This document shows positions 1,292 through 56,969 of a stretch of DNA of 64,000 nt, in pieces. Position 1 is the first letter of the stretch; each line of letters starts with the position of its first letter. A program made the position numbers and the translations under genes. This DNA is from Mobula birostris (Eukaryota), in assembly GCF_030028105.1 (NCBI RefSeq), contig NC_092380.1:56603717-56667716 (forward strand), read 5' to 3'. The notes beneath the pieces were generated by a model, which ran no database searches, was not told the DNA's origin, and saw only the letters and a list, made by a program, of their open reading frames with translations.

Positions 1292-1479
1292 GCAATCTAT
1301 GCTAACTTCTTTTTACGAGCATTCTCATCCCTGCCCTTTCATGACTTAACCTCACTGGCATCACCCTTTGCCTCTCCATCTGTTCAAAACCTTAAGGTGC
1401 TGTACCTGCTTGTAAAATACCTTTCCGCCAGATGAAAGATATTTTCCCTCCCTCCTACAATCCCCAGACACTCTTTCTG

Positions 1480-2230
1480 TGCGTAAAATGTGCACATCTG
1501 CGCCCAAGGTACCTCGCTGATAGTTGGGGAGTTCGGGAAAGGGTGAGATTGGAGGCGAGAGAGATTCCCGTCCCGGGAACAGGGCGTCTCTGAATTCGTT
1601 TCTTACCGAGACAGGCTTTGCTGACCAAGGTACAGGCTGTCAGCGCGCCGGCCGATGCCCCGTAGATGTTGCTGGCGTTGTGCACCAGCTGCGGGGCATG
1701 CTCGCACAAGCAGCTGGCCACTCCGACATGGTAGATGCCCAGAAACCCGCAGCCGGCGAACGAAATGCTCCAGGACGAGTCCTCGGGCCGCAGCATCTCC
1801 TCTGTGGGCTCAACTTCAAACGCGCCCTTCGGCAAACGTACTCGGAGCCGGCTTCTGACACCCTCTGGCTGCCGCACTCACATCTTCCGCTAAGCTGCTG
1901 CACAGACGTTTCCAAACACCCGGATCCTAACCTCCTCTGCTCTGCTCGACTCAGCTCTGTTCTGCTTGGGAGCGCTCCTGGATACTCTCTTTCTCCCTCC
2001 ACCCCAGCCAATTACCTTCGCCACCCACCTGAATGACCCTCGCGTTAGCCAATCACCGAGCTCCCACCCCGATCCACGTAACGCCACTGTCAACTGCTGG
2101 CAGTGAAAGGTCGGGCTTGTTTTTATATGTAGATTATTATCATACACTGAAGGCGCTGCCGCTAATTGGTTGGCCGGGGTATGCTGTACAATGTGCAAGG
2201 ATACCGGAAACGATCGCAATATCACTGATA
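1480..2230 (-). promoter_or_regulatory. CpG-island promoter region of PNPLA2
   Basis: CpG-rich stretch over and upstream of the first coding exon; CCAAT at 2049-2053 and ATTGG near 2165. Confidence 0.6.
1607..1796 (-). CDS. PNPLA2: PNPLA2 (adipose triglyceride lipase, patatin domain), first coding exon; gene continues beyond position 1
   Basis: [63 protein letters not shown]|G, with the glycine-rich GCGFLG motif and the GASAG lipase motif; 190 nt ending in a phase-1 GTAAGA donor; synteny with RPLP2/PIDD1 favours PNPLA2 over its paralogs. Confidence 0.93.
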
Positions 2231-29329: not shown

Positions 29330-30250
29330 AAAGGGGCAGTGGAAGGGACAACGGATAGTATTGGGACAAAAACCACGACAAGGGAAAAGCCCACCACCGC
29401 CCCATGGTCAGGCCTTCGTCGGCAGCACTAGTGAGGTGAGGTTGAAGGAGCCGCGACCGAGAACGCTGGTGTAGGGGTGGCCGGAGCTCTGGCTGACGGC
29501 CCGCAGTTACCGTTGATCCAGCGTCCCATCACCGAATGTCAGCCGACATCGTCAGGCCCGAGTAATAGTCGGGCCCCGAACCAGCCGCACGTGGGAGCGG
29601 TGAATGCAGGCGGAGGCTGCTTCCCTTCCCCCGCTCGCCGCCCGTCAATTCAGTGACTAGCAGTGGGGAGAAGGTCTTCTTCCCTGCCGAGAGGCGAATC
29701 CCGATCCGGCCGGCATCGTCCTCACTCCTCCCCCCCCCCCCCACCCACTCTCCCCTCACCAGCATGTCCGGGGCCCGCCGCTCCTTCAGCAGCCAGGCCC
29801 TGGTTAGGCCTCAGCTTTCCCCCCTTCAAAACCTTATCCTCCCCTGCGACACGGAGTGTGTGGAGCCTTCGGGTGCATGTCGGCGTCCAAGGGAAGGAGT
29901 ATGCTGCCTGAGAGCAAGCGCGGGTGCAGCGGGGCCAACTTACTTGGCAGGATAGGGGAAGCGCTCGCCTTTCCTCCGGCACACGCAGGGCGCTAAAAGA
30001 AAGAGCCTCGTCCTCGTTCACCCACATAAGGAGCATGCGTCAGCTGCTCGCCACGCTATTGGGCAGCCGGAGCCGGCCTTTGGCCAACCCCACTGCCGCC
30101 TGAGTAATCCTCTACGTGATTGGTTAGAAGTTTTTAAACTGCAGTTCGGGACGTTTGATGTCAAAGAGTTAGTTGGTGCTGTTGTCGTACAGAAGTTATA
30201 TGACATGATGTTTTACCGCAAAATGAATAAAACATTACCACCAGGTAAGA
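29330..30250. promoter_or_regulatory. CpG island / probable bidirectional promoter for RPLP2 (-) and PIDD1 (+)
   Basis: High CpG density; ATTGG boxes at 30058-30062 and 30119-30123; strong + strand donor CCAG|GTAAGA at 30244/30245. Confidence 0.65.
29944..30005 (-). other. RPLP2: RPLP2 non-coding exon 1 with 5'TOP motif
   Basis: Starts CTCTTTCTTTT (pyrimidine tract beginning with C, typical of ribosomal protein mRNAs) and ends CCAA|GTAAGT, inside a CpG island. Confidence 0.85.
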
Positions 30251-32299
30251 CTCTGAAACTCTTTACAATGTTGTATGTCTTTGAATCATATTAATTGCTA
30301 AGAACGTTACCTGTTGAATCCTACAGCTTCAGTGCACTCAAGAGCAGGGAAAATCACAGCCGCAGCTAATAAAGTCAAAAGTCGAGTTTATTGTCACACA
30401 CACAAGTATATGTATGCACAATTACAGTGAAACATGTATTTGCAGCAGCATCACGGGAACATGGCATTGGATTTGGCTTTCACAAGAAAAACATAAACAT
30501 TAAATTATTTTAAATTTTTATAAGAAAGAGCACGATTAGATCAAAGTGATTGCTATATTGAGGTAGTGATGAGGGTTTTGCAGGTTGGTTCAAGAAACAA
30601 AAGGTAAATAGTTGTTCTTGAATTTGACACACAGAAATAATGTAATGCCAATGAATTAGTGAAATAATAAACCACAATTCCCCTCCCCACACCCAACCCA
30701 AGAATCAACATTCTATTACTGTACGACTTTGTAGTGACAAGTTTATTTTACAGTTAAAAATCCTGATGGCCTTATAGAGTTCATTCTTTAGGAGCAAATA
30801 TTGGGAATTAATCGAGTGATCTACTAAGTGAAGAGCAAAAGGAGCTGTGGATGATGGAAGTAAAATTGGATAGACAACACACACCAGGTCAGGTAGTAAC
30901 AGTGGAAAGTGAGTCATGGGTCAATGGCCCTTCATCATAATCTCTGTTAGGTTTTTTTTTCGTGCAAATTGTCATGTCTATCACTGTGAATGTTTTAATT
31001 TAACACATTGAAGATTTCACAGATCGTACGACTAGACACTGCATAAAATGAGAAAAATTCTTCAGAGGCTGTCCGTCAGTGTCAAGGGTACATCACTAGA
31101 GTTCTGAGGGTTCCGAGGTGACCAATCAGTCCATTGCAGAATCTGCAGATTTTGCACAGGTGGGACAGGTGGAGCTTGGTGGCTGGATTGGACTTGTGCT
31201 TGGCCTCCATGTGCTCTTGATGGACGTACTCACATTGCTTTCAGCTAATTTTATGCTCCTCAGCCAATATAGGTATTCTTAAGCTTGGAACTCCCAGTGA
31301 CTAGAGAGGATCTGATGTCTGTTCTCAAAGATCACTTCTGTGACAAAGATTCTTGAAAGATTTACTGTCTATTCTCATAGATTTCTTGCTGTGTTAAAGT
31401 TTGATTTGGGCCACTAACGTCGACTGTGCAGGTAACATGGATTGACATTAAAACCACTTGAACATGGACAAATTCTTGATGTTAGGGATATTGGTTTATC
31501 TATCCTTACAATGAATCTGAATGATTTTACAGAAGCAGCATTTCTGATACATTTCTGGGTTATGAAATACTGACTGCAGGTTTCCATATATCTGATGTGT
31601 ATATGAGTGTGGGAGATCAGTATGGAGTTATAGACCATGAGTCTAGTGACAGGTTTGATGTTTTGGCCATCAGCAACTCCAAAGGGTGTGTTGGCACATT
31701 GAGGACAGTGGTGGATTTCATCACCTGTGTCTGGTCTTTCTGAAATATGGGAAATCATCCACTTTGTTCAAGATCCCTTCATGGATGTTAGCGATCAGGG
31801 TGAGAACATGTCAGTGAAAGAGGTTTTTTAGCATCAGAATCAGGTTTATGTGAAATTTGTTGTTTTGCAACAGTTCTACAGTACAATATGTCTAGAAATT
31901 TCTATACGTTACAAAATAAATATTCAAAAGATAAATAAACAATGCAGAAAGTGAGGTAATGTATATGAGGGCCATTCAGGAAGCTGATGATGGAGGGGAA
32001 GAGGCTGGTCTTCAAACACTGAGCGTACAGAGTAAACCTCCTCAGACTCAAGTACCTCCTCCTCGATGGTAGTAATGAGAAAAGGGCATGTCTGGGATGG
32101 GGAGAGTCTTTAATGATGGACGCCTGGGATTTTCAAACATTGGTGAATTTGGGCATGTATGTTCCAATAACGTTTGCAGAGCGAAAGTTTATGGTATGTA
32201 CAGTGAAATAAAAATGTCTATGTGTGTGTCAGTTTACGTGTCCAGTACGTTCTGAGATTACTTTATAAACCCGGACAGAGATTCCTCTGCCCCCAAAAA

Positions 32300-33330
32300 A
32301 ATGATCACAGATTTTTTTAAAATGATCGTTTTCCAGTCGAAGAATGCTAGCAAGTTATTTGCAAAGCCAGTGGTGCGGAAAGTTAAGCTTGATCTTTCGC
32401 GTTACCATCTGTCAGCTTGGACTAGGAAGTCCCAGTCGCTGGGCTCAGGTGTACGACGGATTAGATGGTTCATGACTGAAGCATTTTTGTAAGTTCGAAA
32501 CTAAATTTAATAAAATAGTGCAGAGCTTTCTTTACGTTAATAGTGTCGTCCGTTTATAGTGTTATCAGGTCCATACATTAGTAGTATTAGCACATCCCGT
32601 GTAGAAGGCACCTTTGTGTCCTCTTTGAAAGATACACTCTTAACAGAGAAAGGCGTCTGTCAGAGTTAGTGTATGTGACTTGAACAGGAAATGCAAAAGT
32701 GGTCGGGTCTATAGTGAGAACCAATTAGCCCTTTGCAGTGACGAGGGAGAAAGACTTCAGTAGCAAGGGTTTTGAAGCAAGAAATGTTGCGAAATCCTTA
32801 ACACCTAACATCACAATTCCGGGAAGTTGTAACAGCCTATCCTCGGAACGTAGCAACTCAGATAGTGTCGTGAGGCGGGAAGAATCTTCCCGACGGCGCT
32901 TTTTAGTAAAACCGGGCAAGAGCCGCCTTAAATCCAACGTCTCTTTAAACTCGTGGAAAACTTTTTGTTCAGTTGCCGGGGATCGCGCTGTGTCGCCCGT
33001 TCTTCCGGCGCGTTTGGATTTGTCAGTTTCATTTTGGCACTGTGCCTGTATGTGTGATCGGGAACAGTTTTTTTCTACTCTCATTTTCTTTCTTTCCACG
33101 GGCCAAATGCATAGTTTTCGTGAGGATATTCTTCGCAGATGCTGAACTGCGATCGTTTTATATTTTAATTTTGTATCAATCCATTATCAGGGTAGGTCGA
33201 TAAGACTTGGACCTCACAGTCTCGTGACACTTCCTGGACAAGAGCATTTTCTGGAGTTAATTTGAAGGAATTTCATCCACGCCTTTGTAAGATGAATGTT
33301 TTAGCTTCGTAGAATGTGATGACGTGTAGC
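32300..33330 (+). promoter_or_regulatory. Second CpG-retaining region, candidate PIDD1 promoter or enhancer
   Basis: Non-repetitive-looking and CpG-rich; TTCCGGGAA (32817-32825), GGCGGGAA (32874-32881), CCAAT at 32721, donor CAGG|GTAGGT at 33191/33192. Confidence 0.45.
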
Positions 33331-33359
33331 AATAATTTGCAATTAAATAGCTCCTTTAC

Positions 33360-33918
33360 AAAACAGGAGAAAGTCTGCAGATGCTGGAAATCCAAGCAAC
33401 ACACACAAAATGCTGAAGGAACTCAGCAGGTCAGGCAGCATCTATGGAAAAGAGTAAACATTTGATGTTTCGGGCAGAGGCCCTTCTTCGGAGCTGAGAA
33501 GAAAGGGGGAACATGCCAGAATAAAAAGCTGGAAGCCGAATAGCTGGGAAGTGATAGGTGAACCAGGTGGGTAAGAAAGGGCTGGAGATGAAGGAATCTG
33601 ATAGGAGAGGAGAATAGACTGTAGGAGAAAGGGAAGGAGCAGGGGACCCAGTGGAAATATGAGGCAGGTGAGAAGTCAGAGTGGGTAATAGAGAAGGTGG
33701 TGGGTGGTGGGATTTGTTTACCAAAAAGAAAAATCGATATTCCATCAGGTTGGAGGCACCAAGACCGAATATAAGGTGCTGCTCTTTATATTCATTGTGA
33801 CATGAGGAGGCCATGGACCGACGTGTCAGAATGGGAATCGGAATTCAAATGTTAGGCCTCCGGGAAGGCCTGCTTGTGACAGTTGAAGTGGAGGTGCTTG
33901 ACAAAGTAGTCCCCCAAT
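33360..33918 (-). mobile_element. Penelope-like element 3' fragment
   Basis: EQHLIFGLGASNL remnant, shared terminus, degenerate hammerhead near 33457-33495. Confidence 0.72.
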
Positions 33919-34989
33919 TTAATTCAGAGTTTCATGAAAATAAAACAATGCCTCGTCAGGGCTCCAAAAACTTCAGCATCTTAGGAGCACTATTGAAAGA
34001 AGATTGAGGATGTGAAGGGCAGGTGGTGAATGGAGAAAATGCAGGAGGTTTAGTGGCAACTTTGACCTGTGCATGTTCTTCACCCTATCAACACCATCTA
34101 CTGACTCAGCTCCCAACACCTTACCCCAGAGTTAAGAACAGAATGTGGGAAGGGCTAGTTAGACTCATCAGAGACAGAGTGCCAGTGAACATCTGCTCAG
34201 CTGGGATTCCGTCCTTGTTGTGAATGCCCACTGGAAGCCATGGGCCCAAACTTCCCACCTTCCCTGACTGACAAGAGGATGAAGTGGCCAGATCCATGCT
34301 GGAATAATGTTCACTTCGAAATAGGTAATACCCATACTGAAGTTTTAAAACCCAGTGGTAAAGTCCTTCAGTCACAAATCCACTTGTTGGAAGAGGAGAA
34401 TATAGCAGGAGATGTCAACAATGCTATAATTGTGATCAGCCTCACAAATGGAGAAAAGTTTATTTGTGATAACTAAGTAACATTGAACCTGCTGCCTAAC
34501 GCAGAGACAAGCATCACCAGAATAATCCTTAAACACCTCCTCTCGTGGTCAAGGATTTGCTCCATGATCCAACAAGTGAACTCCAACCATGGAGATGATT
34601 GTGCACATGATCTTCACCATGCAACAACATGCAGGGATTTGCTCCAATCACCACACATGCAACTTTTTGCCCTTGCTAAAGTCTCTGACAGCAACAATCA
34701 AGAGGCACTGTGAGCTATCATACTAAATGCAGGTGCTTGCATAAGTATGTCACCATTTGATATTTACTTCATGATAGTATGTAAGGCATAATTTGAACTT
34801 GTGTATCTACAACAGAGTCAATCATGGTGGAGACCAGCGCCAAGCAGAGTGCATTATTGCCCCAGCACTTTTTTTGCCAAGATATTATGCTTCACTTCCA
34901 CTAGGAACTAATGAGAAAATCTTCAGCCTAAGAGACTGTGCTAAAGAATTAAGGTCACAAAATTTCAACAGTTGAGCAGAATTATGCAG

Positions 34990-35683
34990 GTGATGTAGGT
35001 TGTGGACTACAGGAGGAGTGGAGACAGGCTAACCCCTATTGACGTCAATGGATCTGGGGTTGAGGGGGTGAACAGCTTTAAGTTCCTTGGCATAAACGTC
35101 ACCGAGGATCTCACGTGGTCTGTACATACCGCTGTGTGGTGAAGAAAGCACAACAGTGCCTCTTTCACCTCAGATGGTTGAAGAAGTTTGGAATGGGTCC
35201 CCAAATCCTAAGGAATTTCTACAGGGGCACAATTGGGAAGACTGGCTGCATCACTGCCTGGTGTGGGAACTGTACCTCCCTTAATCGCAGGACTCTGCAG
35301 AGAGTGGTGCGGACAGCCCAGCGCATCTGTAGATGTGAACTTCCCGCTATTCAGGACATTTTCAAAGACAGGTGCATAAAAAGGGCCCGAAGGATCATTG
35401 GGGACCCGAATCACCCCAACCTCAGACTGTTCAAGCTGCTACCATTGGGGAAACGGTACTGCAGCATAAAAGCCAGGACCAACAGGCTCCGGGACAGCTT
35501 CTTCCACCAGGCCATCCGACTAATTTATTTACACTGATACAATTGTATTTCTATGTTATATTGACTGTCCTGTTGTACATACTATTTATTACAAAGCACC
35601 ATAAATTGCACATTTAGACGGAGCCGTAATGTAAAGATATTTACTCATGTTTGCGAAAGATGTAAGAAATAAAGTCAATTCAA
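34990..35683 (+). mobile_element. Rex1/Babar LINE, 5'-truncated
   Basis: KKAQQCLFHLRWLKKFGM..FYRGTI..CITAWCGN..ARTNRLRDSFFHQAIRL; tail aataaagtcaattcaat. Confidence 0.85.
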
Positions 35684-36365
35684 TACATTTGTGCATGGCT
35701 GAGTGCTGAGACCTGTTCCGTAAAGCATACTAGAAGAAGATGGCCTTGCATTCAGCATCTGCAAGACCAGGTCCTTTGCCAATCTGCCCTCCCTGCACAG
35801 CACTTGCCCTCTGTCAATAAACGTTCGTGGCGAAACTGCTAGAAAGAAGACTACTTCCTATATTTTGGGAGGCACTCCATGACAAAGGCAGATAACAATG
35901 ATGAAATTGAACACCACCTTGCTTTTGGCATTTGAGGAGGAAGATATTTGAAAATCAAGACTTTGGGCCTGGTACAAGACCCATGAGCAGTAGTGATCCC
36001 TGCTTTCCTAATGCTTTGGAAGCCTATACTGCCTGCAGCAGATACCTGAAAGCAATCGAAAGATACTATCATCATTGTCACTGCAAAATTTGCTATATTC
36101 ATTAGAAAGATGAGCAAATCAATGTCAGTATCCTCCACCTGGTCAGCATCCTAATCTCGCACGGTAGCTTCTTTAGGTAGGCCATGCCATTTACCCATGC
36201 CTAACTCCCAGAACAGACAACCTATTCAGAGTTCTTTCATGGAAGATTACCGGGCAGAGTGAGGAAATTATTCAAGGATGTGCCAAAGCTTTGCTGAAGA
36301 AATACATCATCCTCATTGGCTCCTGGAAATCTCTTGCTTATGGTCACGAAAAGTGGAGAAGGAAG

Positions 36366-36961
36366 TGTCGTGGTTTCTCGTTTCTTACAAACAACAAGGA
36401 GACGCAGAAAATCCTTCAAGACGTTTTAAACTTTAATTTGCAAATCAAAGCTGAGACAATCAGAAAACTAGTAGCTGACTGCCCATCGAGGCTTGTACAC
36501 AGCATTCTTTATAGCAATCTCCTATCTTAGCTACATTATCATATCCAGACGGCCTGTGCTCACACATCATCAATACATCCGCTCTCGACCTTGCACTATT
36601 GTTTTACTCCCCAATTTAATTATGTCCTAGTTTACTTTTTAGACCAGGTGTCTCCTCATCCCTAACCACAGTTATTTCTTAATTAGTCTTGTTGTGACAT
36701 ACTACCACATATTTCATTACCTTACTCGCCACCGTTATCTTTCTACTTGGTTTCATTCTAGTTCTCTTCCTGAATTAATAGTGATTAGGTCAAAAGTCAT
36801 GGCTACATAGTGAATACCCTCTATTCAGCTAGCAGTGGTTACATAGTAAATATAGAAAATATAATGTGTGCATTTGAGTAAATACTGAAATACTGTTGAG
36901 TAAATATTGTAAATACTGTAATACATAGAAAATACAATGTATGCATTTACATTTTCCAATA
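36366..36961 (-). repeat. ERV 3' LTR (596 bp)
   Basis: Differs from 41516-42110 by 5 substitutions and one 1-bp indel on manual comparison; TATAAA and ATTAAA on the - strand; preceded by a purine tract AAAGGGGA (36966-36973). Confidence 0.95.
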
Positions 36962-37251
36962 TAAATCCCCTTTGAGACCCACAGGGTCTCGTACAGAGAG
37001 AGAGAGGACTGAGAGTCTATGCACAAAGGCTCAAATAAAGCCACGCATTTACTCCCAAATTTAGGTTAAACTATAGTTTCCTGCGCTTAAGACTCAAAGT
37101 GTTCTCTCCCTACCTCCCTAGGCTGCTGAGCCAAAAACCCGCCCCTTCGTATCTGAGACGGAAAAAGACTCAGGAGCCTTCACAGCCTAATTCCCACATA
37201 TTTCATCTCTCTCCTGTTCGTCTTGCATGTCTCGTAAACTGTACGAATACA

Positions 37252-38733
37252 TCATCGGTGCTTCTTTCTCGTAGGGCTCGACCCAATAAACTCCAGGAGC
37301 ATCGGAAACCGTTTCATTGCAGCACGCACTACAAGCGACTTGAGGCATGGAAGAAAACAGCACAGAATGACCGCACAGCTTAGCAATACAATACCAATGG
37401 TTACTGCAATCTTGGTCAGCCATGCTCCCCATCCCCCTAGTTTACTATTTAACCAGTCAAAGAACTGGTGTCCAAACCCTGCATTTTGTTTAACTTTCTT
37501 TCTTAGATTTTTCAGTTTATTCATTGCTCTGGTAAACGATCCCTCCAGACTGGTGTTATTCGGTATAAAAGTACAGCATTGTTCCCCAAACATTACACAA
37601 ACTCCTCCTTTCTCTGCCAATAGCCAGTCTAGTACCTGAATATTCTGCCACGCCACTCTACTGGTTGCATCTAGCTGCTGCCCCAAAACCTCTAGTGCAT
37701 CATCGGTGTAGTTAATGAATCTCTGTTGATTATAATATATATAATTTATCCATTCAACATTTTTACTAACCCCTTTCACAGGTATAAGTGCTTCCCAGCC
37801 CGCAGCAATCTCATTTCTTGCTTTAAACTCGTTAGGTATACCTCTCGGCTGTCCTATACTGTCAATTTGGACTGTTGGATCAAGTTCATATTTTCTCTTC
37901 CTTCGTCGCAGTATCTGCTGCTTCAGAGCGTCAAATTGTACTTCAGGGGATACTACAACTTCTTGAATCAGCATAACTCGTGTACATGTACTTGTCCAAC
38001 CGAGGGGGAGCATGGATCTCAGACCTCCCTCCTTCCCACAGAGCCACCAGGTATCTGCTAACGGGATGCTCTGGGCATCCAGTGCACCATCGGACGAAGG
38101 GGTACCTGTCTTGTATCTCTGGCCTGGGGTTACATCCCAAGTCTTAGCACAGTTACCACTGAAATGTCCAACCAAGAGATCACCCATCCATGTGAAACAT
38201 TCATAACTCAAATGCTCCTGCACTTTGAGCTTTCCCAATGTGGGTATCTGGCTTCTTTTATTCATAGCCCACGGTCTGCTGTAATTATAGTTAGAGGCAA
38301 GCTTGTTTTGATCATACTGCGAGGAAGCCTGGTATAACATACACCAATAAGGGCACATTGGTGTGTTATCAATACATTTCCGATAACAAGGATCTATCCC
38401 GCTACAAATTCCCATACTGCAGGTCTTGACTATACTTGGACACTGCTGCGCACACTGCCCCCTCCGCTCCTTTCACCATTGCGCGCAGGTGGAAGAGTTG
38501 TAAGGCATGGGGACTACATACTGTGCTGGATTTGCTCCTGAGCATACATAACAATTCTGTCTCTTCATCATCCCTGCTGTATAATTTGCCCATTGGTACT
38601 ATATGTTCTGATACCATGGTACGGAGGTAATCGTTGTGCTCCTCTTACTCCTTTCTCTCAGGTTTTGTGGGATCCTAACAGTCCCATGCCACATCTGCCA
38701 AATTAATGGTCTCCAAATCTGCACAAGAGTATC
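37252..38733 (-). pseudogene. env: ERV env (SU+TM) with two premature stops in N-terminal SU; the last 387 codons are open
   Basis: CYVC (CxxC) motif in SU; RRRKR furin site; IDSIGQPRGIPNEFKAR; ISD-like WQNIQVLDWLLAEKGG; CVMFGEQCC (CX6CC); hydrophobic anchor IAVTIGIVLLSCAVILCCFL; stops at 38599-38601 and 38473-38475. Confidence 0.92.
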
Positions 38734-40213
38734 TCAGTGTATCCTCCCGGGGGCCGGACTGGTCGCCCCCAAGTCGTCCCCATTATCTGAAAGAGTACTA
38801 CCATCCATAACCCCATCCTTAGGGTCTTCGGGCCTGTCCTCAGGACCAAAAATTTCCCTTATTACTTGGTCAAGTTCCTGCGGTTCAGTGTCAGCTTCTT
38901 GTTCCTCTTGTCTGTCCCCTACTGTTTGTTCCTCTTCACCACTTACCTCGGGTGGCCCACCTGATTGTACCTGCGGGACTGCTCTAGTGCAGTGAGTGAG
39001 ATGATACCAGGTGGAGCGTCCTTCCACTTGAACTACAGTGGGTGATGCTTTGGTTACTATAAAGGGCCGTTCCCTTCTGGGTTCGTTCCACTTTCTTCGA
39101 AACGCTCGCACATAGACCTGATCACCTGGCTTGATTGGTCCTTCCCCTCGATCGATCTCTGGCTCTTTCTGTTTTTCCTGTGCATAAATAGACTTATGTA
39201 TCATAGTTAATTGCTGCATGTATTGTTTTAATTCCACTTCCAATTGTTCCAAACTAGGCCCTTTATATGGTCCTCTCCACTGGGGCACTGGCATGGGCCT
39301 TCTGGTTAGCATTTCATGCGGTGTTAGACACGTCATCCGATTAGTCTGCATGCGGTAACTCATTAACGCTAACGGTAGTGCATCGACCCAATTGAGTTTA
39401 GTATCTGCACAGATTTTGTTTAGTTTTTAAGGTCCCGTTAATTCTTTCCACCATACCCTGCGACTGAGGGTGATACACACATCCAAATCTCTGCTTTATT
39501 CTCAGTGCTCGCAGAACTAACTTGACCACTTTTTGAATGAAAGCTGAACCATTGTCTGAGCTCATTTCTGTCGGTATCCCAAACCTTGGGATCACTTCGT
39601 TTGTCAGGAATTTCACCACTGTTCCTGCCCCTTGATCTTTCGAGGGTACTGCCTCTACCCATCTGCTGAATCTGTCGATTACCATCAACATGTATCTTTT
39701 CCCTCTTACTGTTTTTATCATGTCTACATAGTCAATCACTGGGTGTTTAAATGGCCCTTCAGGTACGGGTATATGACCTATTGGGGTTGTAATTCCTTTC
39801 CGAACATTATTCTGCGCGCATACCTCGCACTGTGACAACACATGGTCTACTGAAGCCTGTAAATAAGGCGACCAAAATCCATCCTTTTTTATTTTTCTTA
39901 TTACTTCCCCCCCCCCCTTGCACAATGATCCATCCCATGTGCTTCTGAGATCAGGATAGTCAGTAAAGGGGTGGGAGCTACCAGTAGGCCATCTTCCGTG
40001 GTCCATAGGCCTTCTGGGTTCTGCTTGGCCCCCCTTCGTCTCCACAGAGTTTGTTCTGCCAAAGTTGCCTTTCCCTGTATCTTAATTAGGTTCTCTACCA
40101 TAGGTTCCGGCTCTAGACTTACCTGGGGTGCGATAACAGCGGATGTACACCCAGACGCTTTCCTGGCTGCTTCATCTGCAGCTTGATTTCCCTTTGTTAC
40201 TGCATCATTTCCT
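38734..40213 (-). pseudogene. pol: ERV pol 3' part: RNase H tail plus integrase, frameshifted
   Basis: TKGNQAADEAARKAS; AHGMDH...CEVC zinc finger; IDYVD / SSDNG / QSQGMVER DDE triad; frameshifts near 39910 (homopolymer run) and ~39420. Confidence 0.93.
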
Positions 40214-40719
40214 CCTCGGTATCCCAGACTTTAATTTCTCCATTTAGATCCACTCTTCCTGTTATCATCGGACACGGCTTAAGGGTTTTTCTCTCGTAAT
40301 AGGGAGGAGGTTTTTCTACGTCTTTCAGGTCTGGGTATAGAGCCGAAGCCGACTCCCTGTTATGCTTTTCCTTTTCTTTATCAGCCTGCTCGTTTCGTTT
40401 CTCAGTGTCTTTTTTTACTTACTATTAATATACCTCCCGTCTTTCTTAATCTTTCTCCTTCCATCCTAAAGAGTTTTAACACTTCCATTTCTTGTTCCCT
40501 TTTTCCTTCTCTTTTCTTAGATTTATCTTTGGGTTTGTGATTTTTAATTAGCGCTTCCATTTCCTCACATAAGCTTACATCAAATGTTCCTTCTCTTGGC
40601 CATTTCGTGACCAGTTCTTTAGTTCTTTTTTCCCATTTTTCTGAAATTTCCGCGATCTTACCTTGACACACCGGGAATTTTCTGCTCAATATTTCTACTG
40701 CCGTTCCTTTCTCTGTCAT
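40214..40719 (-). pseudogene. gag: ERV gag 5' part (matrix-like region and late domains), truncated by deletion
   Basis: MTEKGTAVEIL..KWPREGTFD; after a frameshift, LYPDL (40326-40340) and PPPYY (40296-40310). Confidence 0.8.
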
Positions 40720-40923
40720 GTTGTTCTTTTTTTCCTTTTTCTAGTATGGTATTTTTAGAATCTCACTACTTGCCTATTTAATAGCACTATTTTTCTAACT
40801 CTATTTCTATGCCTAGCCTTATGGTTTATCTCACCCACGTCTGAATTATCTATCAAACTATCTTTGTCTCTTACTACATTCTGCCCGTGCAGACCCCTAC
40901 TTAGGGTGGTATCCACAGAACCT

Positions 40924-41108
40924 TTTACACCTCGCCTATGCAGACCCTTACACTTCTTAAGGCAGTATTCATGAGGATTTTTAATTTGCACATCGCCTAT
41001 GCAGACCCTTACACTTCTTAAGGCGGTATTCACGAGGATTTTTAATTTACACCTCGCCTATGCAGACCCTTACACTTCTTAAGGCGGTATTCAGGAGGAT
41101 TTTTAATT
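40924..41108. repeat. Three tandem 61-bp repeats in the ERV 5' leader
   Basis: cacctcgcctatgcagacccttacacttcttaaggcrgtattcangaggatttttaattt x3, with degenerate partial copies on both sides. Confidence 0.92.
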
Positions 41109-41493
41109 CTCCTTCCCTGCCTGTTCAGACCTTCGTTTCGTGCGAAGCGGTATCCACAGGGACTTACCAACACCACGTGGAATTTTCTTACTTAACTTGT
41201 TATTACTTCATTCGTACTTACCCCCGCTGCAGTGTTCTTGATTAATCCTCTGAGCCTCCTTTTATCCCCGATTCTCCCAGATTCTTTGGATCGGAGAGAC
41301 CTTCCGGCAGTTGCTTCACACTTCTGAGTCCCCGAGACCCCCAAAACCAACAGAATTCTTAGTCCGAATTATCGCAAAAAGCGCTCACTTTTTTCTTTGG
41401 GTGCACCCTTAATTCTGTTAGCCCCGTGAGGGTCCCCGAGGGACCGGGAAGCGTCCCAATCTGCCGTTCCCTTCCTCGCGGGTCTCTATCTGA

Positions 41494-41511
41494 ATCCTGT
41501 TCGTGACGCCA
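41494..41511 (-). promoter_or_regulatory. ERV primer-binding site, complementary to the tRNA-Ser(CGA) 3' end
   Basis: TGGCGTCACGAACAGGAT, 4 nt after the 5' LTR; + strand GAATCCTGTTCGTGACGCCA matches my recollection of a vertebrate tRNA-Ser-CGA 3' end plus CCA. Confidence 0.85.
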
Positions 41512-41515
41512 ATTT

Positions 41516-42110
41516 TGTCGTGGTTTCTCGTTTCTTACAAACAACAAGGAGACGCAGAAAATCCTTCAAGACGTTTTAAACTTTAATTTGCAAATCAAAG
41601 CTGAGACAATCAGAAAGCTAGTAGCTGACTGCCCATCAAGGCTTGTACACAGCATTCTTTATAGCAATCTCCTATCTTAGCTACATTATCATATCCAGAC
41701 GGCCTGTGCTCACACATCATCAATACATCCGCTCTCGACCTTGCACTATTGTTTACTCCCCAATTTAATTATGTCCTAGTTTACTTTTTAGACCAGGTGT
41801 CTCCTCATCCCTAACCACAGTTATTTCTTAATTAGTCTTGTTGTGACATACTACCACATATTTCATTACCTTACTCGCCACCGTTATCTTTCTACTTGGT
41901 TTCATTCTAGTTCTCTCCCTGAATTAATAGTGATTAGGTCAAAAGTCATGGCTACATAGTGAATACCCTCTATTCAGCTAGCAGTGGTTACATAGTAAAT
42001 ATAGAAAATATAATGTGTGCATTTGAGTAAATACTGAAATACTGTTGAGTAAATATTGTAAATACTGTAATACATAGAAAATACAATGTATGCGTTTGCA
42101 TTTTCCAATA
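41516..42110 (-). repeat. ERV 5' LTR (595 bp)
   Basis: Adjacent to the PBS; ~99% identical to 36366-36961; followed by TSD GAAG. Confidence 0.95.
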
Positions 42111-42544
42111 GAAGCAGTTGAGATAGTATTGAGAACCTTGAGTTTATGCAGATGACCTGCATTCAAGCACATCTCTTCACATCCACCTGAAGGCCCCTTC
42201 TGCTTCATCTTTGGAAGTACACTGTTCCCACATTAGCCTCAGCAGTTACCTCGGAACACCCATGAAGTGAACCTGAGGGGCTGCCTAAAAATAGGAGAAT
42301 TAAAAACTCATTTGCTCTTGTCACCAATGTAAGGTTGGGAAAGTAATGCAGCATTTTGCCATTAACCCGTACCCTCGTGACCTCAATAACCAGTGCAAAA
42401 TTTAAGATCATAATCAAGTTTCATTTTGGTCAACATGAACTGATACCGATCCTACTCTTTGTTGCATCTCCTGCTCTACACCAAGCTGTTGTTTCCTTAT
42501 GGGCACCATGCTTCTGGTTTGTAGGCCGAGGCAAAGGTATCACC

Positions 42545-43548
42545 ATTTAGGAGGGAGATTGACAATCTGGCTGAGTGGTGCCATGAGAACTGAATGTCAG
42601 CAAGACCAAGGAGCTGATCATTGACTTCAGGAGGAGGAAACCAGAGGTCCATGAGCCAGTCCTCATCAGGAGATTGGAGGTGGAGAGGGCCAAATTCCTC
42701 AGTGTTGTCATTTCAAAGGACCTGCCCTAGGCCCAGCACGTAAGTGCAATTACGAAGAAAGCAGGGCAGCACCTCTGCTTCTTCTGGAATTTGCAAAGAT
42801 TCAGCATGACACCTAAGACTTTGACAAACTTGTATAGATGTGTGGTGGAGAGTATATTGACTGGCTGCAACAATGCCCTTGGATGGAAAATCTGACAAAC
42901 TGTAGTGGATACAGCCCAGTCCATCACGGGTAAAGCCCTCCCCACCATTGAGCACATCTACACAAAGTGTTGTCTCAGGAAAGCAATATTCATCATCAGG
43001 GACCCCCACCACCCACGTCATGCCCTCTTCTCTCTGCTGCCTTCAGGAAGATCAGAATTGGGTTTAATATCACCAGCATATGCTCTGAAATGTGTTGTCT
43101 TTGCAGCAGCAGTACAACATAATACATAATAATAGAAGAAACTTACAAAAAAGGTACAGGAGCCTCAGGACGCACACCACTAGGTTCAGGTACCATTGTT
43201 AACCCTCAACCATCACACTGTTTAACCAAAGGAGATAACTTCATTCAACTTCATTTGCCCAATCATTAAAATGTTCCCACAACCTATGGACTCACTTTCA
43301 AGGACTCTTCAACTCATGTTCGATATTTATTGCTTATCTATTCACGATTTTTTTTCTTTCTTTCTGTATTTGCAGTTTGTTGTCTTTTACACAATGGTCG
43401 ACACTCAAGTTGGTCCGGTGTTTCATTGATTTTATTATGGTTATTGGATTTATTGAGAATGCCCACAAGAAAATGAATCTCGGGGTTGTATATTGGTGAC
43501 ATGTATATACTTCGATAATAAATTTATTTTGAACCTTGAACTTTGAAC
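42545..43548 (+). mobile_element. Rex1/Babar LINE fragment
   Basis: NVSKTKELIIDFRR and DTAQSITGKALPTIEHIY..HHPRHALFSLLPSGR; tail ttgaaccttgaactttgaac. Confidence 0.8.
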
Positions 43549-44777
43549 TCATCTTTCCTTTATTGGAGTCACTCCAGCTGTCATCCTATTGAATGTTTTC
43601 CCTTTTGTTCTTTATTCACCATCTCTCAGCTACTGTATTCTCCTTCTTCATCTCTCTCTGTTTTGTAATCTTACACAGATGAAAAAGTTATGGTTTGCAG
43701 CTATAACTTTGTTTTAGTTTTAACAGTTGTACAAATGTAACCCTCTCTCCGGGGCTCATACACAAAAATGGCTCATTAGCTAATTCTGGTAATGATAATC
43801 TTTAACACGAGGTGAATATTTTTTGTCTTTTATAAGCCCAGTGGATCTTGGTGAAATCGTGAAGAGGCAATAAATCAGCTTCAAGGATAAGATAAATTTA
43901 GACAAAGCATGAAATAAAACACACCTTTTTGATTTAGTTTTATGTCACTTCTCAATATTTTCTTAAATTGCTTAATTGTTGTGAATGCTTCTTTGAAGTT
44001 GAAAATACTATATTCAACTTGTTTAGTATATTGTATATACTATACAAGGTGCTTTGGATGTAAGTTGCAGTTTTTGCTGAATAAGGGTCAATTTTGCATT
44101 GACAACAGGCCTGCTTGGAACTAATTTGATAGCGTCCAGATTCACCTCATAGGACAAAATGGCCAGCAGATGATCCCTAGAAAGGCATCATCCAGACAGG
44201 TTGTAGTGCACAACGCTGGGGGAGTACTGGAGTGCCAGCAGTCCGATCTTTTAGCTAGACTTCTTGAGCGGTATTAAGTGAATTCCCAATCTCTAATATG
44301 AGAACAAGGAAATTTCATGACTGTCATGGCAAACATTAATTAACTGTTGATTCTGGGATCTGGTTTGAAAGTTAACTACTGTACTTCCAACTTTGTTACA
44401 GTAATTACATTTCAAATGCAGTTTTTAGTCTTTTTTTCTCAAGTATCATTTGTGTACCTAATCTGATAAGTCTCACCTGTCTTGTCTTACTTCCATGATT
44501 ATATATGATAGCATCGCAATCCTGCTTTTTAGTTTGCAATATTACGCTGTGCATCAATGCCTTTAGTTTTGAGAGGAACAACTCACTATAATTCTGTTGG
44601 ACTAGACAGATGTAAAATGAACTAATTAGCGAACATGTTTATTAACTTATGACTTTTCTTACTTTCTCAATTTTGTGTAGTGCAGCCTGTTCTTGAGGGA
44701 GGATCATTGTGCAAAGCACCAAATGTCTGCCTGGCGTGTTGAAACATGCACCTTGCACAGCTGAGCTATGGTAGAAG

Positions 44778-45021
44778 ATGGCGAAATTATTGCTTGGGGA
44801 GGCAGACAAAGACAGCACTGCAGAAGTGTACTTGGCAGACAACAGACTGAACTTAGACGTATTTCCAAATGGCACCAGAAAATTTTTGGTGCTATGCAAT
44901 ACTCACAGGAAGGAGCTACAACAGGTTGAGTTTCTACGGCTAAACTGCAATGAAGAGGAGATCGGTCCATCACTGACATTCGTTCCTGAACTAAGGAGGC
45001 TGAAATCACTTGTGCTTAAAG
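44778..45021 (+). CDS. PIDD1: PIDD1 first coding exon (acceptor at 44680 or 44685)
   Basis: MAKLLLGEADKDSTAEVYLADNRLNLDVFPNG...LQQVEFLRL...LRRLKSLVLK|G, matching the PIDD1 N-terminal motifs; in-frame stop upstream; phase-1 GTATTG donor. Confidence 0.92.
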
Positions 45022-45465: not shown

Positions 45466-45879
45466 GTGGTCACCTCAGGGATGAATATGGTGCATGTAAG
45501 CATGGTCTGTTGGCGACTTTGCCTGTGAACTTTGGACATTTCCAGTGCTTGAGTCATTTGGATCTGAGTTTCAACCGCTTCGTCTCTTTGCCTGAATGTC
45601 TGACGGAATTGAAGGAACTCACTGTGCTCCTGCTAAGCCACAACCAACTGGCTGCACTGCCCAACAGCATTGGGAAGCTGGTAAAACTGTCTTTTCTGTC
45701 CCTGATGAAAAATCAGCTGAGGGTGTTGCCTGGAAGCATTGGTGAACTTGTAGCACTTAAGAGAGTGGACTTATCTGAGAATAAACTGGAACAGCTTCCT
45801 GATGAGATCGGAAAACTGAGTAGCTGTACCTGGATAGACTTTTCAGGGAATCGATTGAAAACTCTGCCGTCCACACTCA
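45466..45879 (+). CDS. PIDD1: PIDD1 LRR exon (414 nt)
   Basis: GGHLRDEYGACKHGLLATLP..LSHLDLSFNRF..LLLSHNQL..VDLSENKLEQLPDEIGKL; cag acceptor, GTGAGT donor, frame preserved. Confidence 0.95.
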
Positions 45880-51087: not shown

Positions 51088-54000
51088 CTATAAAAAAACC
51101 CCTGTATCCCTTAAAAATGCTGAAAATACCCAGACTTGTGCTCTCTTACCCATGCCCAGCAACCCTTTTAATGTGAATTCCCGCATCCCCAAATCCCTTA
51201 ATTTATTTCTCATCATCTCTCTCTGTATCCCATACTTCCTGCAACTCAGAACTACATGTTCTACTGACTCCTCTTCCTGACATTCCTCACACAATCCTGT
51301 CTGGTGTTTCCCTATCATTTTCAATGTTTTGTTTAATGCACAATGCCCCAGCCTTAACCTAGTCCACACAATTTCCTCTCTTCTGTTTCCATTACCTAGC
51401 CTAGTAACTGCAACACTCTTTTGTATTTGATATAAATGCCTCCCTTTCCCCTCCCTGTCCCATCTTTCTTGCCACATTCGGTTGACTTTTTCCCAGATTA
51501 CACACTTAACCTCTGCTTTACTGATACTAATGTGCATTTCCACATTTTCTTTCTTTAACACCCTCTTTGCCAACTCATCCATCCTCTCATTCCCCTTCAC
51601 CCCTACATGTGCTGGAACCCATAGAAATTTTACCTGACCTCCCTGATTTGCAATCCTTGTAACTAACTGAAGGACTTCATAAAGTACATCTTGCCGACTG
51701 TTTGTGTGAAAAGACCTTAAACTTGCTAGAACGGAGGATGAATCTGAATATATCAATGCTTTGACTTGTCTGGCTTTCTGCACCCATTGCAACGCAACCA
51801 ACACTGCCAGCATCTCCACTGTAAACACTCCTAACTTATTAGATGTTCTTCTGCTGATTCCAATTTCTTTTGCTGGTATGACCACCCCAAACCCTGTCAC
51901 TCCTGTTGCAGGTTCCTTCGCACCATCCGTATAAATGTGAGTATAATCTCTATACTTTTCCATCACATGACAGTTAAATGCATTTACCAAATCTGTTTTA
52001 TATCTTTCTTTCCTTTTTACCTCTAACAAATGCCAGTCTATGTCAGGCCATACAAGCTTCCATGGAGCTACAACCGGATAAACTACTGAAGGACTTATCC
52101 TCAGATCAAATACTCCACATTCTTTCGCGATATCATTCCCTACCCGACTAAAGGTATCCCTCTGAAACCTCCCATTTTCCCAGCACTCCTGCAACACTCC
52201 TTTAGTAGGGTGAGAATCATTGTGCCCCTGCAAGTTAGCCCAGTAGTTTGCCATCAGTTGCATCCTTCTTAGTTCCAAAGGCATTATTCCCATTTCTATC
52301 TGTAGGGCTGACACTGGTGACGTTTTAAAAGCCCCACTGCACACTCTCAAGGCCTGAGCCTGAATCACATCCAGTTTCCTTATAAGAGACCTAGCTGCTG
52401 ATCCATATACTATATTTCCATAATCCAATACAGATCTTACTAAAGCCACATACATTCTCTTCAAAGCTGAACAACTTGCTCCCCATTCCCTACCAGTCAA
52501 ACATCTCATCACATTTATTACTTTTTTACATTTCTCCTCAACTTTCCTGATATGGTCTGCCCATGTTAATCGTGAATCAAATATAACTCCCAGAAATTTA
52601 AATGATGCAACCCTTTCTAATTCAACCCCATACATCCTTAACTTCTTCCCTACCTCAACCCTTTTCCTGGTAAAAAATACAGATTGAGTTTTGTCTACTG
52701 AAAATCTACATCCCCAATCATAACCCCACTCCACCACTTCATCAATTGCTTCTTGTAGTTTCCTAATTATATGGTCCATGTTCCTGCCTCTTTTCCACAA
52801 GGCCCTATCATCCGCAATCAGTGACCTACCTATATCCACTGGTACCTTTGTGAAGACATCATTGATCATAATCATGAAAAGTAATGGGCTAATCACACTA
52901 CCTTGAGGTGTGCCATTTTCCACTATGTACTGTTTTGATAATTCTGATCCAATCCGAACTTGAATTTTTCTACCAAACAAAAAATCTTTAATCCAATTAA
53001 AAACTCTCCCACCAACCCCCATCTTGTGCAGTTTAATTAATAATCCTTCCTTCCACATCACATCATAGGCTTTTTCAATGTCAAAGAACACTGCCACTAC
53101 TGACTCTCTATTTGCCTGGGCCTTCCTTATTTCAGTCTCTAACATAATCACTGAGTCCATGGAATTCCTTCCCTTTCTAAAACCACTCTGATAACTTGTC
53201 AGCATTCCCCTTTTCTCAAGCTCATATGATAACCTTTCTGTTATCATCCTTTCCATTATCTTACATATACTTGATGTTAATGCTATTGGTCTGTAGCTAG
53301 TGGGTTTTGACAGATCCTTGCCAGGCTTTCTTATTGGAATTACTACTGCTTCTTTCCATGCACTTGGTAATCTTCCCTCCTCCCACACTCTGTTATAAAA
53401 ATGCAGCAACTTCAAGAGCGCTCCTTCTCCTAGATTTTTTAGCATCACAGAGCATATCAGATCTTTCCCTGGGGAGGTTGGTCTCGATGTCTTTATTGCT
53501 CTCACCATTTCTGCTAATGTAAATGGATCATCAATTATATCATCTGTTCCTTCCCTCCTGCTTAACACATCTGGGCGTTGGCTCATTATTCTTTCCCTTC
53601 TTCAGACAAATTTTCTGAACTGTGTATCAGTACAAATGACTTGGCCATGACCTCAGCCTTATCCCTACTGGAGACTGCAGTTTCCTCCTCAGATATCATT
53701 ACTGGATATTCCCATTCCCTTCTATCTCCTCCCATCCTCTTAATCATTCCCCATATCTCTCCCACAGGTGTTGTTCTTCCTATCTTGTTACAAAAACTCC
53801 TCCAACTTGCCCTTTTAGCTTGACGTATAGTTCTCCTCACCACTGCCTGTGCTTTCTTATATTGAACCAAATGCTGCATATTATGGGTTCTTTTAACTAG
53901 CCTGAATGCTCTATTTCTGTTTTTTACAGCCTGACAACATTCCTCTGTCCACCATGGTACCAGTTTTCTATTCATCCTATTTTTACTCCTAGCTATAGAT

Positions 54001-54824
54001 CCTTCTGCTGCCAGGATAATTGCTGAAGTCACCTGACTGTTTAATTCATCTACATTTCCAGAAATATCAATCTTTGTCAACCCTTCTTCACTCAACTTCT
54101 GGAACTTACCCCAATCAGCTTTTTCAAACACCCACTTTGGGGTTCCGCCACCTGGTCTTACTTCAACTCTTTCACCCACTGAACACAAAACTGGGTAGTG
54201 ATCACTGCCTACTGTTGAAGCAGTCCAAACTCCCCAGTTACTAATGCCAGCCAAGGTATTAGACACTAACGTAATATCTAACACTGACTCAGTTCCTGTT
54301 GTTATATCTATCCTTGTGCCGCTACCATCATTCATACACACCAAATCCCTTTCTTCCATCAAATCTTCAATTACCTTTCCATTTGGATCTGTAATCTGAT
54401 CCCCCCATATTGTGCTATGAGCATTGAAATCTGCACACCACACTACTTTATGTCTGTTTTGTCCTTGTATCTTTAATAGGCTGTCCAAATCCAACCTTTT
54501 ACATGGATTGTAGTAGTTAATTATAACCACTCCCTCCCCTCTCTCCCACACTTCCACCACTATGTATTCCTGATCATCTCCTTTTTCCAATACCCTATAT
54601 GGTATACCTTGCTTGATTAACATAGCACAAACCCCTCCTCCCCCTAGATTTCTATCTTTCCTTATTATTGTATACCCATATACCACAAAGTCTAAAGTTG
54701 GTTTCAACCAAGTTTCCTGAATACACACTACATCCGGTTTTACAACCATTTCTTTAATAAAGTGCTTGAATTCCCAGCTATTGGCCAGTAAGCTCCTTGC
54801 ATTCCATTGTAAAAGAATCACCAT
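51088..54824 (-). pseudogene. LINE ORF2: AP endonuclease + reverse transcriptase + RNase H + C-terminal CCHC, one frameshift near 53590
   Basis: LQWNARSL, CIQETW, DFNAH, GSDHYP; SYRPIALTS, FFDIEKAYD, GTPQGSVISP, IADD; IYTDGAK, IYSDS, WVPAHVGVKGNE; CEECQEEESVEHVVLSC. Confidence 0.93.
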
Positions 54825-54832
54825 AATTAGTA

Positions 54833-55876
54833 TTAACCAACACATGACACTTCCTGGCTTGACTGATTACTGAGGTTCTCCCTCACTTCCTCCCATGTCA
54901 GTCCTACTAACCCTAAATGGTTTACTGCTGCTTTTACCACCAGCTGAATTTTGTCACTTTTTGACTTTACCTCAGCAGTACTATTAATCACTCCTGCAAT
55001 GAATGTTACTAGAGCCTTTTTGTCTACATAAATCCTGTCATTTGTTCTTTGTTGCATCTCTCGTATCCCTATTGCTCCCTGTTCATTAGGAACATTATTC
55101 TGTTCTCTTGACACTTTTACAGCTTCTGCATAAGTGATCTTTCTTTTCACTTTTATTTCTTGAATTTTAGTCTCCCGTCTCACAACCGCACACCCACTAT
55201 ATGCAACATTATGAGCTCCTCCACAATTGCAGCATTTTGGTTGAACTCCTGTTCCGCACTTTCCATATTCATGATCACCCCCACATCTAGCACATCTCCT
55301 CTGCCTTTTACAGTTTTTAGCCACGTGTCCAAACCTTTGACAATTATAGCACCTCAGTGGCTTTGGCACATACACCCTTACTGGGTAACTCATGAAACCC
55401 AGGAACACCTTCCTTGGCACTCTTTCTTCTTCAAATTCAATCAATACTGATTCACTTTCCTTTTTCACTCCCTCCTTTGTTGTTTTCAGTCTTTGAACAT
55501 TCATTACTTTCCCTCCTTTGAGATTCCTCTTTATCTCCTCCATATTTATACTCATTGGTATCCCCGTGATCACTCCTTTACAACCACTGTTTTGTGCTCC
55601 CACCCTCCCAGTGTATTCCACCTTGCATTTTCCTATCTCTTTTAGCTTGAGTGCTTTCTCAAGTTGTTCCTCATTCGCACATCTTACCAATAAGTTGCCA
55701 TCATTAAGGACTTTTGCAAATACTATTTCCCCTACCTTATTTGTCAGAGTTGTTGTTAGCACAAACGGGTTAATTTTCTTCATATGTCCCTGAGCCTTCT
55801 CATTAAACCTAATTATGACAACACCTCCTCTCTGAGCTTGTTCATCTTCCTCACTTTGAGCTTTCTCCACTATCAT
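54833..55876 (-). CDS. LINE ORF1, gag-like nucleic-acid-binding protein with three CCHC knuckles (true start probably ATG 56063, upstream of a frameshift)
   Basis: CYNCQRFGHVAKNC, CARCGGDHEYGKC, CCNCGGAHNVAYSGC, ITYAEA. Confidence 0.88.
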   Translation of the reverse strand: MIVEKAQSEEDEQAQRGGVVIIRFNEKAQGHMKKINPFVLTTTLTNKVGEIVFAKVLNDGNLLVRCANEEQLEKALKLKEIGKCKVEYTGRVGAQNSGCKGVITGIPMSINMEEIKRNLKGGKVMNVQRLKTTKEGVKKESESVLIEFEEERVPRKVFLGFMSYPVRVYVPKPLRCYNCQRFGHVAKNCKRQRRCARCGGDHEYGKCGTGVQPKCCNCGGAHNVAYSGCAVVRRETKIQEIKVKRKITYAEAVKVSREQNNVPNEQGAIGIREMQQRTNDRIYVDKKALVTFIAGVINSTAEVKSKSDKIQLVVKAAVNHLGLVGLTWEEVRENLSNQSSQEVSCVG

Positions 55877-56969
55877 TTCTTATTCTTTTATTCCCTTTGT
55901 CTTGGTTTTTATTCATCCGACCCCTCACTACCTCCTCATTCCTTTTATTTCTCCCTTCACAATAATCCACCTCTCCCCAGCTGCCTACCTCTGGTCCCAA
56001 GTCTCTATCCCTCTCCTTCTCCACTTTCTTTCCCTCAACCCCGCCTCTTATCTTATCCGCCATTACCAGACCCACACGACCCCCTCCCAGCAATTTCCGT
56101 TCCTTCCCCACTCTCTTTCCCTCAACAGGTTCCAAAACACACTCACACATCAAGCAAAACACAACTAGCTTCCAGTCCAACCACTCCTAGCCCAGCCCTC
56201 TCTGCAATTGGACCCTCCAGCTACAGGTGTATTTTTACTACAATCAATTGAAACACCTTGACTGCACATGGTGATCTCAATTTAATTAATTATTGACTTC
56301 TAAAACCAATTGGCTGCACCGGTGATGAATTGGTGTGTCGTACTAAAAGGGCTGAATACTTATACAATCAATCATTTTATGTTTTGTATCTGTTAATGAT
56401 TTAGATCACTTTGTAGAAATCTGTTTTCACTGACAAGAAAGAATCTTTTTCTGTTGATCAGTGTCAAGAAAAGCCAAATTAAATCCATCGTGATTCAATG
56501 ATGTTAAACAATAAAGCATGAAAACTTCTGGGGGGTGGTGGTGAATACTTTTTGTAAGTATTGTATCTGAAGCTTACTTTCATATTCAATTCCCATTAAA
56601 ATAAAATGAGTATTCAACTTGAGCGGGGTGCTGGAAGCCAAGCCCATCATATCCTTGCTTAATGTGCATGTATGCTTTCAGCAGAATCAAAGAGATTTGC
56701 TGCATTTATCTGTTCAGGGAACAGTTTACGTTAATGCATAAACCATTGGTCCTGGGGTCTTGTGTTTGGACTGGTTTAATTCCACATTGGGGATTGCATT
56801 TTCCAACCAAGTCAGTGAGGTACCCTCTGCTACACCAAACATTGATGCAGTTGTCTCCTTGTTAGTTACTGCCCATTATGCCACTGGTGTTTAGCACAGC
56901 AATGTAGGTCCTCACTGTCTGTCTGTCATTGGCCATCCTTGGCAGCTTTGGGCCTGTACTCACTGGAAT

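Follow-up and report, generated by a model that had tools for sequence, protein, structure and literature searches.

A probably private internal deletion in a class I endogenous retrovirus of Mobula birostris, and the shared deletions of its relatives

A 5.7-kb provirus on the minus strand (positions 36366..42110) of a 64,000-nucleotide stretch of the Mobula birostris genome (GCF_030028105.1, contig NC_092380.1, positions 56,603,717 to 56,667,716; here called the window) raises the question of how an endogenous retrovirus (ERV) came to lose its core, and whether it has spread in that state. The element is a class I (gamma/epsilon-like) ERV with the order long terminal repeat (LTR), primer-binding site (PBS), gag, pol, env, polypurine tract, LTR, and a short target-site duplication (TSD). 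The first-pass annotation of the window considered it either a non-autonomous derivative mobilised by a helper virus or the product of a deletion after insertion. The deletion is very probably private to this locus and the copy a dead end without offspring in the assembly.

As the first-pass annotation had recognised, the gag remnant is joined to the tail of RNase H; the junction is a 6-bp microhomology (40208-40213, minus strand). The deletion has removed capsid, nucleocapsid (with its zinc knuckle), protease, a 2H-phosphoesterase-like domain, reverse transcriptase (RT) and the greater part of RNase H, and the join is out of frame, so that no fusion protein is expected from this copy. Fuller relatives, for which a search had been advised, were found: compared with these undeleted copies, whose core is longer, the deletion amounts to about 4.5 kb, some 790 bp more than the 3,677 bp obtained against a longer copy. 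When a 181-bp junction probe was used, 1 of 40 scored matches (the window itself) spanned it and the other 39 ended at the 6-bp overlap, and a 41-nt junction pattern, with up to two mismatches allowed, matched once in the 4.0-Gb genome. Because the junction matches only once, the window copy is not part of a trans-amplified family, and a unique junction was the outcome that the first-pass annotation itself had named as contrary to its proposal of a non-autonomous family. No second scored LTR was above 97% identity to that of the window copy.

Helper-dependent derivatives do occur in the family, but the window copy is not one of them. First-look searches of the genome gave 596 LTR, 176 integrase and 126 RT-thumb candidates, which are not copy numbers; by the last figure the lineage is visible to RT-based screens, which the first-pass annotation had expected to miss it at this locus. 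The family analyses used 69 loci; L118 (a duplicate of L117), the partial L039 and L108, and copies under the coverage cut of each analysis were left out. Three junctions recur in the family. In J1, nested in J2 (22 loci, 21 of them also with J2), a 1,150-bp loss begins at the end of gag and reaches the start of RT, removing nucleocapsid, protease and the phosphoesterase-like domain. In J2 (33 loci, and one more with additional mismatches), the deletion takes out the RT connection together with most of RNase H and shifts the frame before integrase. In J3 (13 loci: L137, L148 and L153-L163), 1,704 bp of the reference are lost, from inside protease to the RNase H tail, leaving an RT-less genome; at least ten of these copies also have a common env deletion, and two of the 13 keep env. 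A further 141-bp deletion is common to five J3 copies.

J1, J2 and J3 are non-autonomous subfamilies, with the same junction, different TSDs and shared lesions: TSDs are perfect 4-bp repeats in 23 of the 27 copies scored at both ends, every one different, and two gag frameshifts are common to all 15 fetched copies with both J1 and J2. Since these lesions were inherited across independent insertion sites, the three subfamilies would descend from defective masters copied in trans with borrowed proteins. Segmental duplication as the source of the shared junctions is ruled out by the differing TSDs, and a few duplicate pairs exist (L117/L118 and L158/L159, with identical break points or flanks, are likely segmental duplicates). 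Splicing was also rejected, as neither GT/AG nor a pyrimidine tract is found at J1 or at the window junction. Overlaps of 5-15 bp are present in 15 of the 20 junction classes of the family. In every class, omega for singleton changes is close to neutral (about 0.5-1.3); for shared changes it is lower in most genes, mostly not significantly.

The parentage of the window copy can be read from sites that separate the groups. Old and young groups of copies are 12-17% apart in the central surface subunit (SU) of env (window 37900-38500) and 3-6% apart within groups, against differences between old and young of 4-6% in the transmembrane subunit (TM) and pol, a pattern that suggests replacement of SU in the young wave. 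The window copy is of the young type at 60 of 60 SU sites, 4 of 5 leader sites and 9 of 11 sites in the 5′ LTR, yet of the undeleted type at all nine pol-tail sites that separate deleted young from undeleted old copies. Descent from the J1 or J2 masters was rejected, as all nine of these sites disagree with it. Because young LTR, leader and env are combined with an undeleted-type pol tail, the parent of the window copy was likely a full-length young-wave genome; one copy of the undeleted class has nearly the same mosaic.

The preferred reading, to which we assign a probability of roughly 0.55, is that the core was lost during reverse transcription by a template jump; such deletions are usually explained by RT switching its template from one short repeat to another. 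A class I fish-type retrovirus would have entered intron 1 of the host gene in antisense orientation. RT copying a full-length genome would have jumped between two 6-bp repeats, dropping the core and landing on an A-rich word that also ends the 13-locus J3 deletion, and the resulting provirus would have remained a one-off without descendants in this assembly. As the slipping template would have been a full-length young-wave genome, presumably the parent of the copy, no separate helper would have been needed. This end point, shared with J3, points to a slip-prone site: two of the ten private deletions longer than 300 nt end within 8 nt of the 3′ end of a shared deletion (p 0.006 under random placement, in a post hoc test of 3′ ends only).

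Several points weigh against a template jump. The hotspot test was made after seeing the data and rests on two cases. Large deletions of HIV-1 are reported to form without RT too (preprint 10.64898/2026.03.31.715508), and RT jumping and host end-joining are inseparable at this junction because microhomology fits both. The assembly stands for a single individual, the copies fetched are a partial sample of the family (69 loci against 176 first-look integrase candidates), and the window junction is known from the assembly alone. The env tree pairs the window copy with a J3 recombinant (support 0.86), and the integrase trees are poorly resolved.

Integration of a full-length provirus whose core was lost later, in the host germ line, through microhomology-mediated repair is possible, though we consider it the less probable history. 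It agrees with the private junction, with a 6-bp overlap that suits end-joining as well, with a full-length parent type, and with about 0.5% of private change, which gives time for such an event; it does not predict that the 3′ end should coincide with the independently arisen J3 end, and an undeleted allele was not seen in the single assembly examined. The earlier proposal of a deletion after insertion stands as regards a private deletion, which may have arisen during reverse transcription instead. An origin by second-step deletion from an RT-less J3-type genome, recombined with a young LTR and env and packaged by a helper, is unlikely. The 3′ end point and a diagnostic base are the same as in J3, the neighbour in the env tree is a J3 copy with a young env, and two of the 13 J3 copies retain env; against this, the leader and matrix region of the window copy differs by 5.1% from J3 and by 3.1% from copies with J1 and J2, and its 3′ LTR by 6.9% and 2.9%, distances that make J3 ancestry less likely, and its leader sites are of the young type where J3 copies have the old type.

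Two further explanations deny that the junction is a private event of this genome. That it marks a small non-autonomous family, with further insertions that are polymorphic and missing from the assembly, is very improbable: every cis signal is present and other deleted forms in the family were mobilised, but siblings would be expected to have LTRs about 99% identical, where no other scored LTR is above 97%, and the single match in 4.0 Gb again speaks against them. That the junction is an assembly error is scarcely credible. No read or contig was shown to bridge 40208-40213, and the listed contigs stop there, as the majority copies predict; however, the junction has clean microhomology like others of the family, the TSD is perfect, the join between LTR and flank is bridged in organism A, and the empty site is seen in organism B.

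The window copy is as old as the deleted young wave of J1 and J2. Its LTR pair differs by five transitions and one indel (Kimura two-parameter distance 0.0085, or 0.85%), confirming the six differences counted earlier and giving a value that the deleted young classes also span. Median LTR divergence (K) is 0.039 for undeleted copies (n=17), 0.026 for J3 (n=9), 0.015 for J1 with J2 (n=10) and 0.012 for J2 only (n=9). The private-change rate of the window copy is 0.54%, against a median of 0.46% in both deleted young classes. Since this rate and LTR K both agree with one and the same wave, two ideas were rejected: that the window copy is younger than the other copies, and that conversion homogenised its LTRs. 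The five LTR substitutions have an interval of 0.27-1.96%, equal to 0.13-0.91 of the flank divergence from organism B, a related species (2.2%; 211 of 9,761 sites, taken from the longest contigs). This agrees with the empty site of organism B, where a 1307-nt contig joins 35523-36360 to 42111-42578 with one GAAG. The insertion thus postdates the split from organism B, about 2.2% diverged, and the recent activity attributed to the lineage was borne out in the sense of activity after that split. At the rate of 2.2e-10 per site per year assumed in PMC4422223, the age of the copy is about 19 million years (6-45), and at an illustrative 1e-9 about 4 million. Shark mutation rates are low (7e-10 per generation, PMC10587355), and at shark or ray rates "young" may mean millions of years.

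From 5′ to 3′ on the minus strand, the provirus consists of the following parts. The 5′ LTR (41516-42110, 595 bp) is joined to its flank without any difference in a DNA contig of organism A, which may be the source sample. The PBS (41494-41511) is complementary to a host tRNA-Ser(CGA) gene; one fetched copy has a different PBS, which we take to be that of another tRNA-Ser type. The leader contains three 61-bp tandem repeats (40924-41108), and the gag 5′ remnant (40214-40719, about 170 codons) corresponds by position to the matrix region, with a frameshift near 40410 and no Pfam match above the cut-off. Beyond the deletion junction, the RNase H tail and integrase (38734-40207) retain the zinc-binding, rve core and MLVIN_C domains, with frameshifts near 39908 and 39410. 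The env gene (37184-38816) is of the gamma type, with a TLV_coat match, a CX6CC motif in TM and a young-type SU; its frame is shifted near 38750 and near 37270 and interrupted by stops at 38736, 38601 and 38475. A polypurine tract region (36962-36973), whose role is suggested by its position, precedes the 3′ LTR (36366-36961, 596 bp), which starts with TA and ends with CA. The TSD is a perfect GAAG on both sides (36362-36365 and 42111-42114). The first-pass annotation was thus correct about the TSD and the retention of cis signals, integrase and env, and it undercounted the lesions: at least five frameshifts and three env stops are present, where it had given at least three and two.

The insertion lies within a host gene that we take to be PIDD1, in which leucine-rich repeat (LRR) domains were the feature found. 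In a probable RNA run, a 589-nt contig links a non-coding exon 1 (30147-30244, plus strand, with a GT donor) to the first coding exon (44681-45021, plus strand, PIDD1-like) and this to the next, an LRR exon at 45466. Because exon 1 is spliced to the coding exon in this contig, the provirus is placed inside intron 1 (30245-44680, 14.4 kb), 2.6 kb before the first coding exon; it is antisense, as previously described, and not upstream of the gene. The probable RNA run is a separate sample that may not carry the insertion. No run is registered as RNA, which says nothing about expression in either direction. On the strand of the host gene, two AATAAA words lie within the provirus (37034 and 37285), where they might end transcripts inside the intron. 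The locus itself is ordinary: the provirus is decayed, its deletion is private, and the intron around it is bridged by splicing in a probable transcript.

Features of the relatives place the family more closely. Among solved structures, the best matches of their RT include the RT of murine leukaemia virus (MLV; 105 bits), with HIV at about 57, and an in-frame TAG ends gag before protease in 40 of 40 matches. A gamma-type env is defined by the CX6CC motif in TM (10.1101/2021.11.23.469661). Between protease and RT, the relatives encode a putative 2H-like domain, in a part that the window copy has lost: its two HxT motifs are present in 21 of 23 and 28 of 31 motif matches, and its atlas leads score 0.85-0.87, below the 0.9 mark, with no Pfam or PDB match. 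Because of this domain, grouping with ZFERV and SSSV is plausible. The epsilon-like fish ERVs (the ZFERV and SSSV group and CmiERV II/III; PMC4977317, PMC4422223) resemble the ray family in having a gamma-type env, an MLV-like RT and integrase tail, and putatively an extra phosphodiesterase-like pol domain; the ray elements differ in LTRs that start with TA and in the tRNA-Ser(CGA) primer. The RT of L032:4454-4912 is 70-75% identical to several teleost ERV proteins and 71% to a shark one, an identity that hints at cross-class transmission. The nearest named env proteins are those of Mobula hypostoma (91%) and Hypanus sabinus (75%), indicating the same env lineage in myliobatiform rays; their "syncytin-like" labels are automatic, and they are proviral env frames.

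The LTR ends depart from the canonical TG...CA. Among fetched loci, 94 of 97 LTRs start with TA, not TG, and 103 of 105 end with CA, in old and young classes alike. TG and CA are conserved in retroviruses, but Rous sarcoma virus does not need CA at U3 (PMC12789967), and TACA ends have been described in Copia elements of plants (PMC9804982), the only case of TA...CA ends found in a limited literature search. Of 26 loci scored from the best LTR matches, five (L007, L008, L017, L021 and L024) are solo LTRs with perfect TSDs.

The pattern of shared deletions and helper dependence is itself already known from mammals. Deleted (RTVLH2-like) proviruses of the human family HERV-H are likewise class I and form a younger, larger subgroup with common pol deletions (PMC6629862); the ray family differs in having at least three nested or parallel deletion lineages, with the window copy in none. 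In the mouse intracisternal A-particle (IAP) element 1Delta1 (PMC6466679), an internal gag-pol deletion spread in trans, as J1 would have done. The J1 join of Gag to RT is in frame in 12 of 13 measurable copies with J1 and J2, but the two gag frameshifts precede it in all 15 fetched copies with J1 and J2, and selection gives no clear signal, so an IAP-1Delta1-like fusion protein was rejected; in the window copy, moreover, the join is out of frame and env is kept. Defective elements of the cattle ERVK[2-1-LTR] D-type are also carried by a competent minority, although they are class II and shown to be active today (PMC10924933). A literature search on endogenous retroviruses, of incomplete coverage, gave no Mobula paper, and its cartilaginous-fish results included no ray study.

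The family presents in a cartilaginous fish the helper-and-defective dynamics found in human, mouse and cattle, with layers that can be dated by LTR K, and species-specific insertions such as the window copy offer clean markers for ray phylogeny. We tentatively picture a ray lineage with a TA U3 end that was relaunched by a new SU and overrun by successive helper-dependent genomes, and that may still be insertion-polymorphic or active. If so, it would hold a record of succession among parasites of parasites in a cartilaginous fish.

Other copies and neighbouring features deserve mention. L152:517-9639 (element sense) has J1 without J2, shares its LTR with an upstream copy and its env deletion with L123, and is a recombinant between classes. 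L138 has a second private gag-to-RNase H deletion, of 3.2 kb, that ends beside the J2 junction. A natural Pol-Env fusion frame was considered and rejected: a signal stretch is found in the SU frame in 22 of 45 scored copies, and integrase and SU share one frame in only 11 of 45; because most copies keep a separate env start, the occasional open frame is attributed to indels. Elsewhere in the window, a patatin-like first exon (1455-1877, minus strand) presumably belongs to PNPLA2, which would fit the PNPLA2-RPLP2-PIDD1 synteny that we assume. In a host intron, long open frames of a long interspersed nuclear element (51088-55879, minus strand) contain motifs that we take to be a zinc knuckle, an endonuclease, an RT and an RNase H-like domain.

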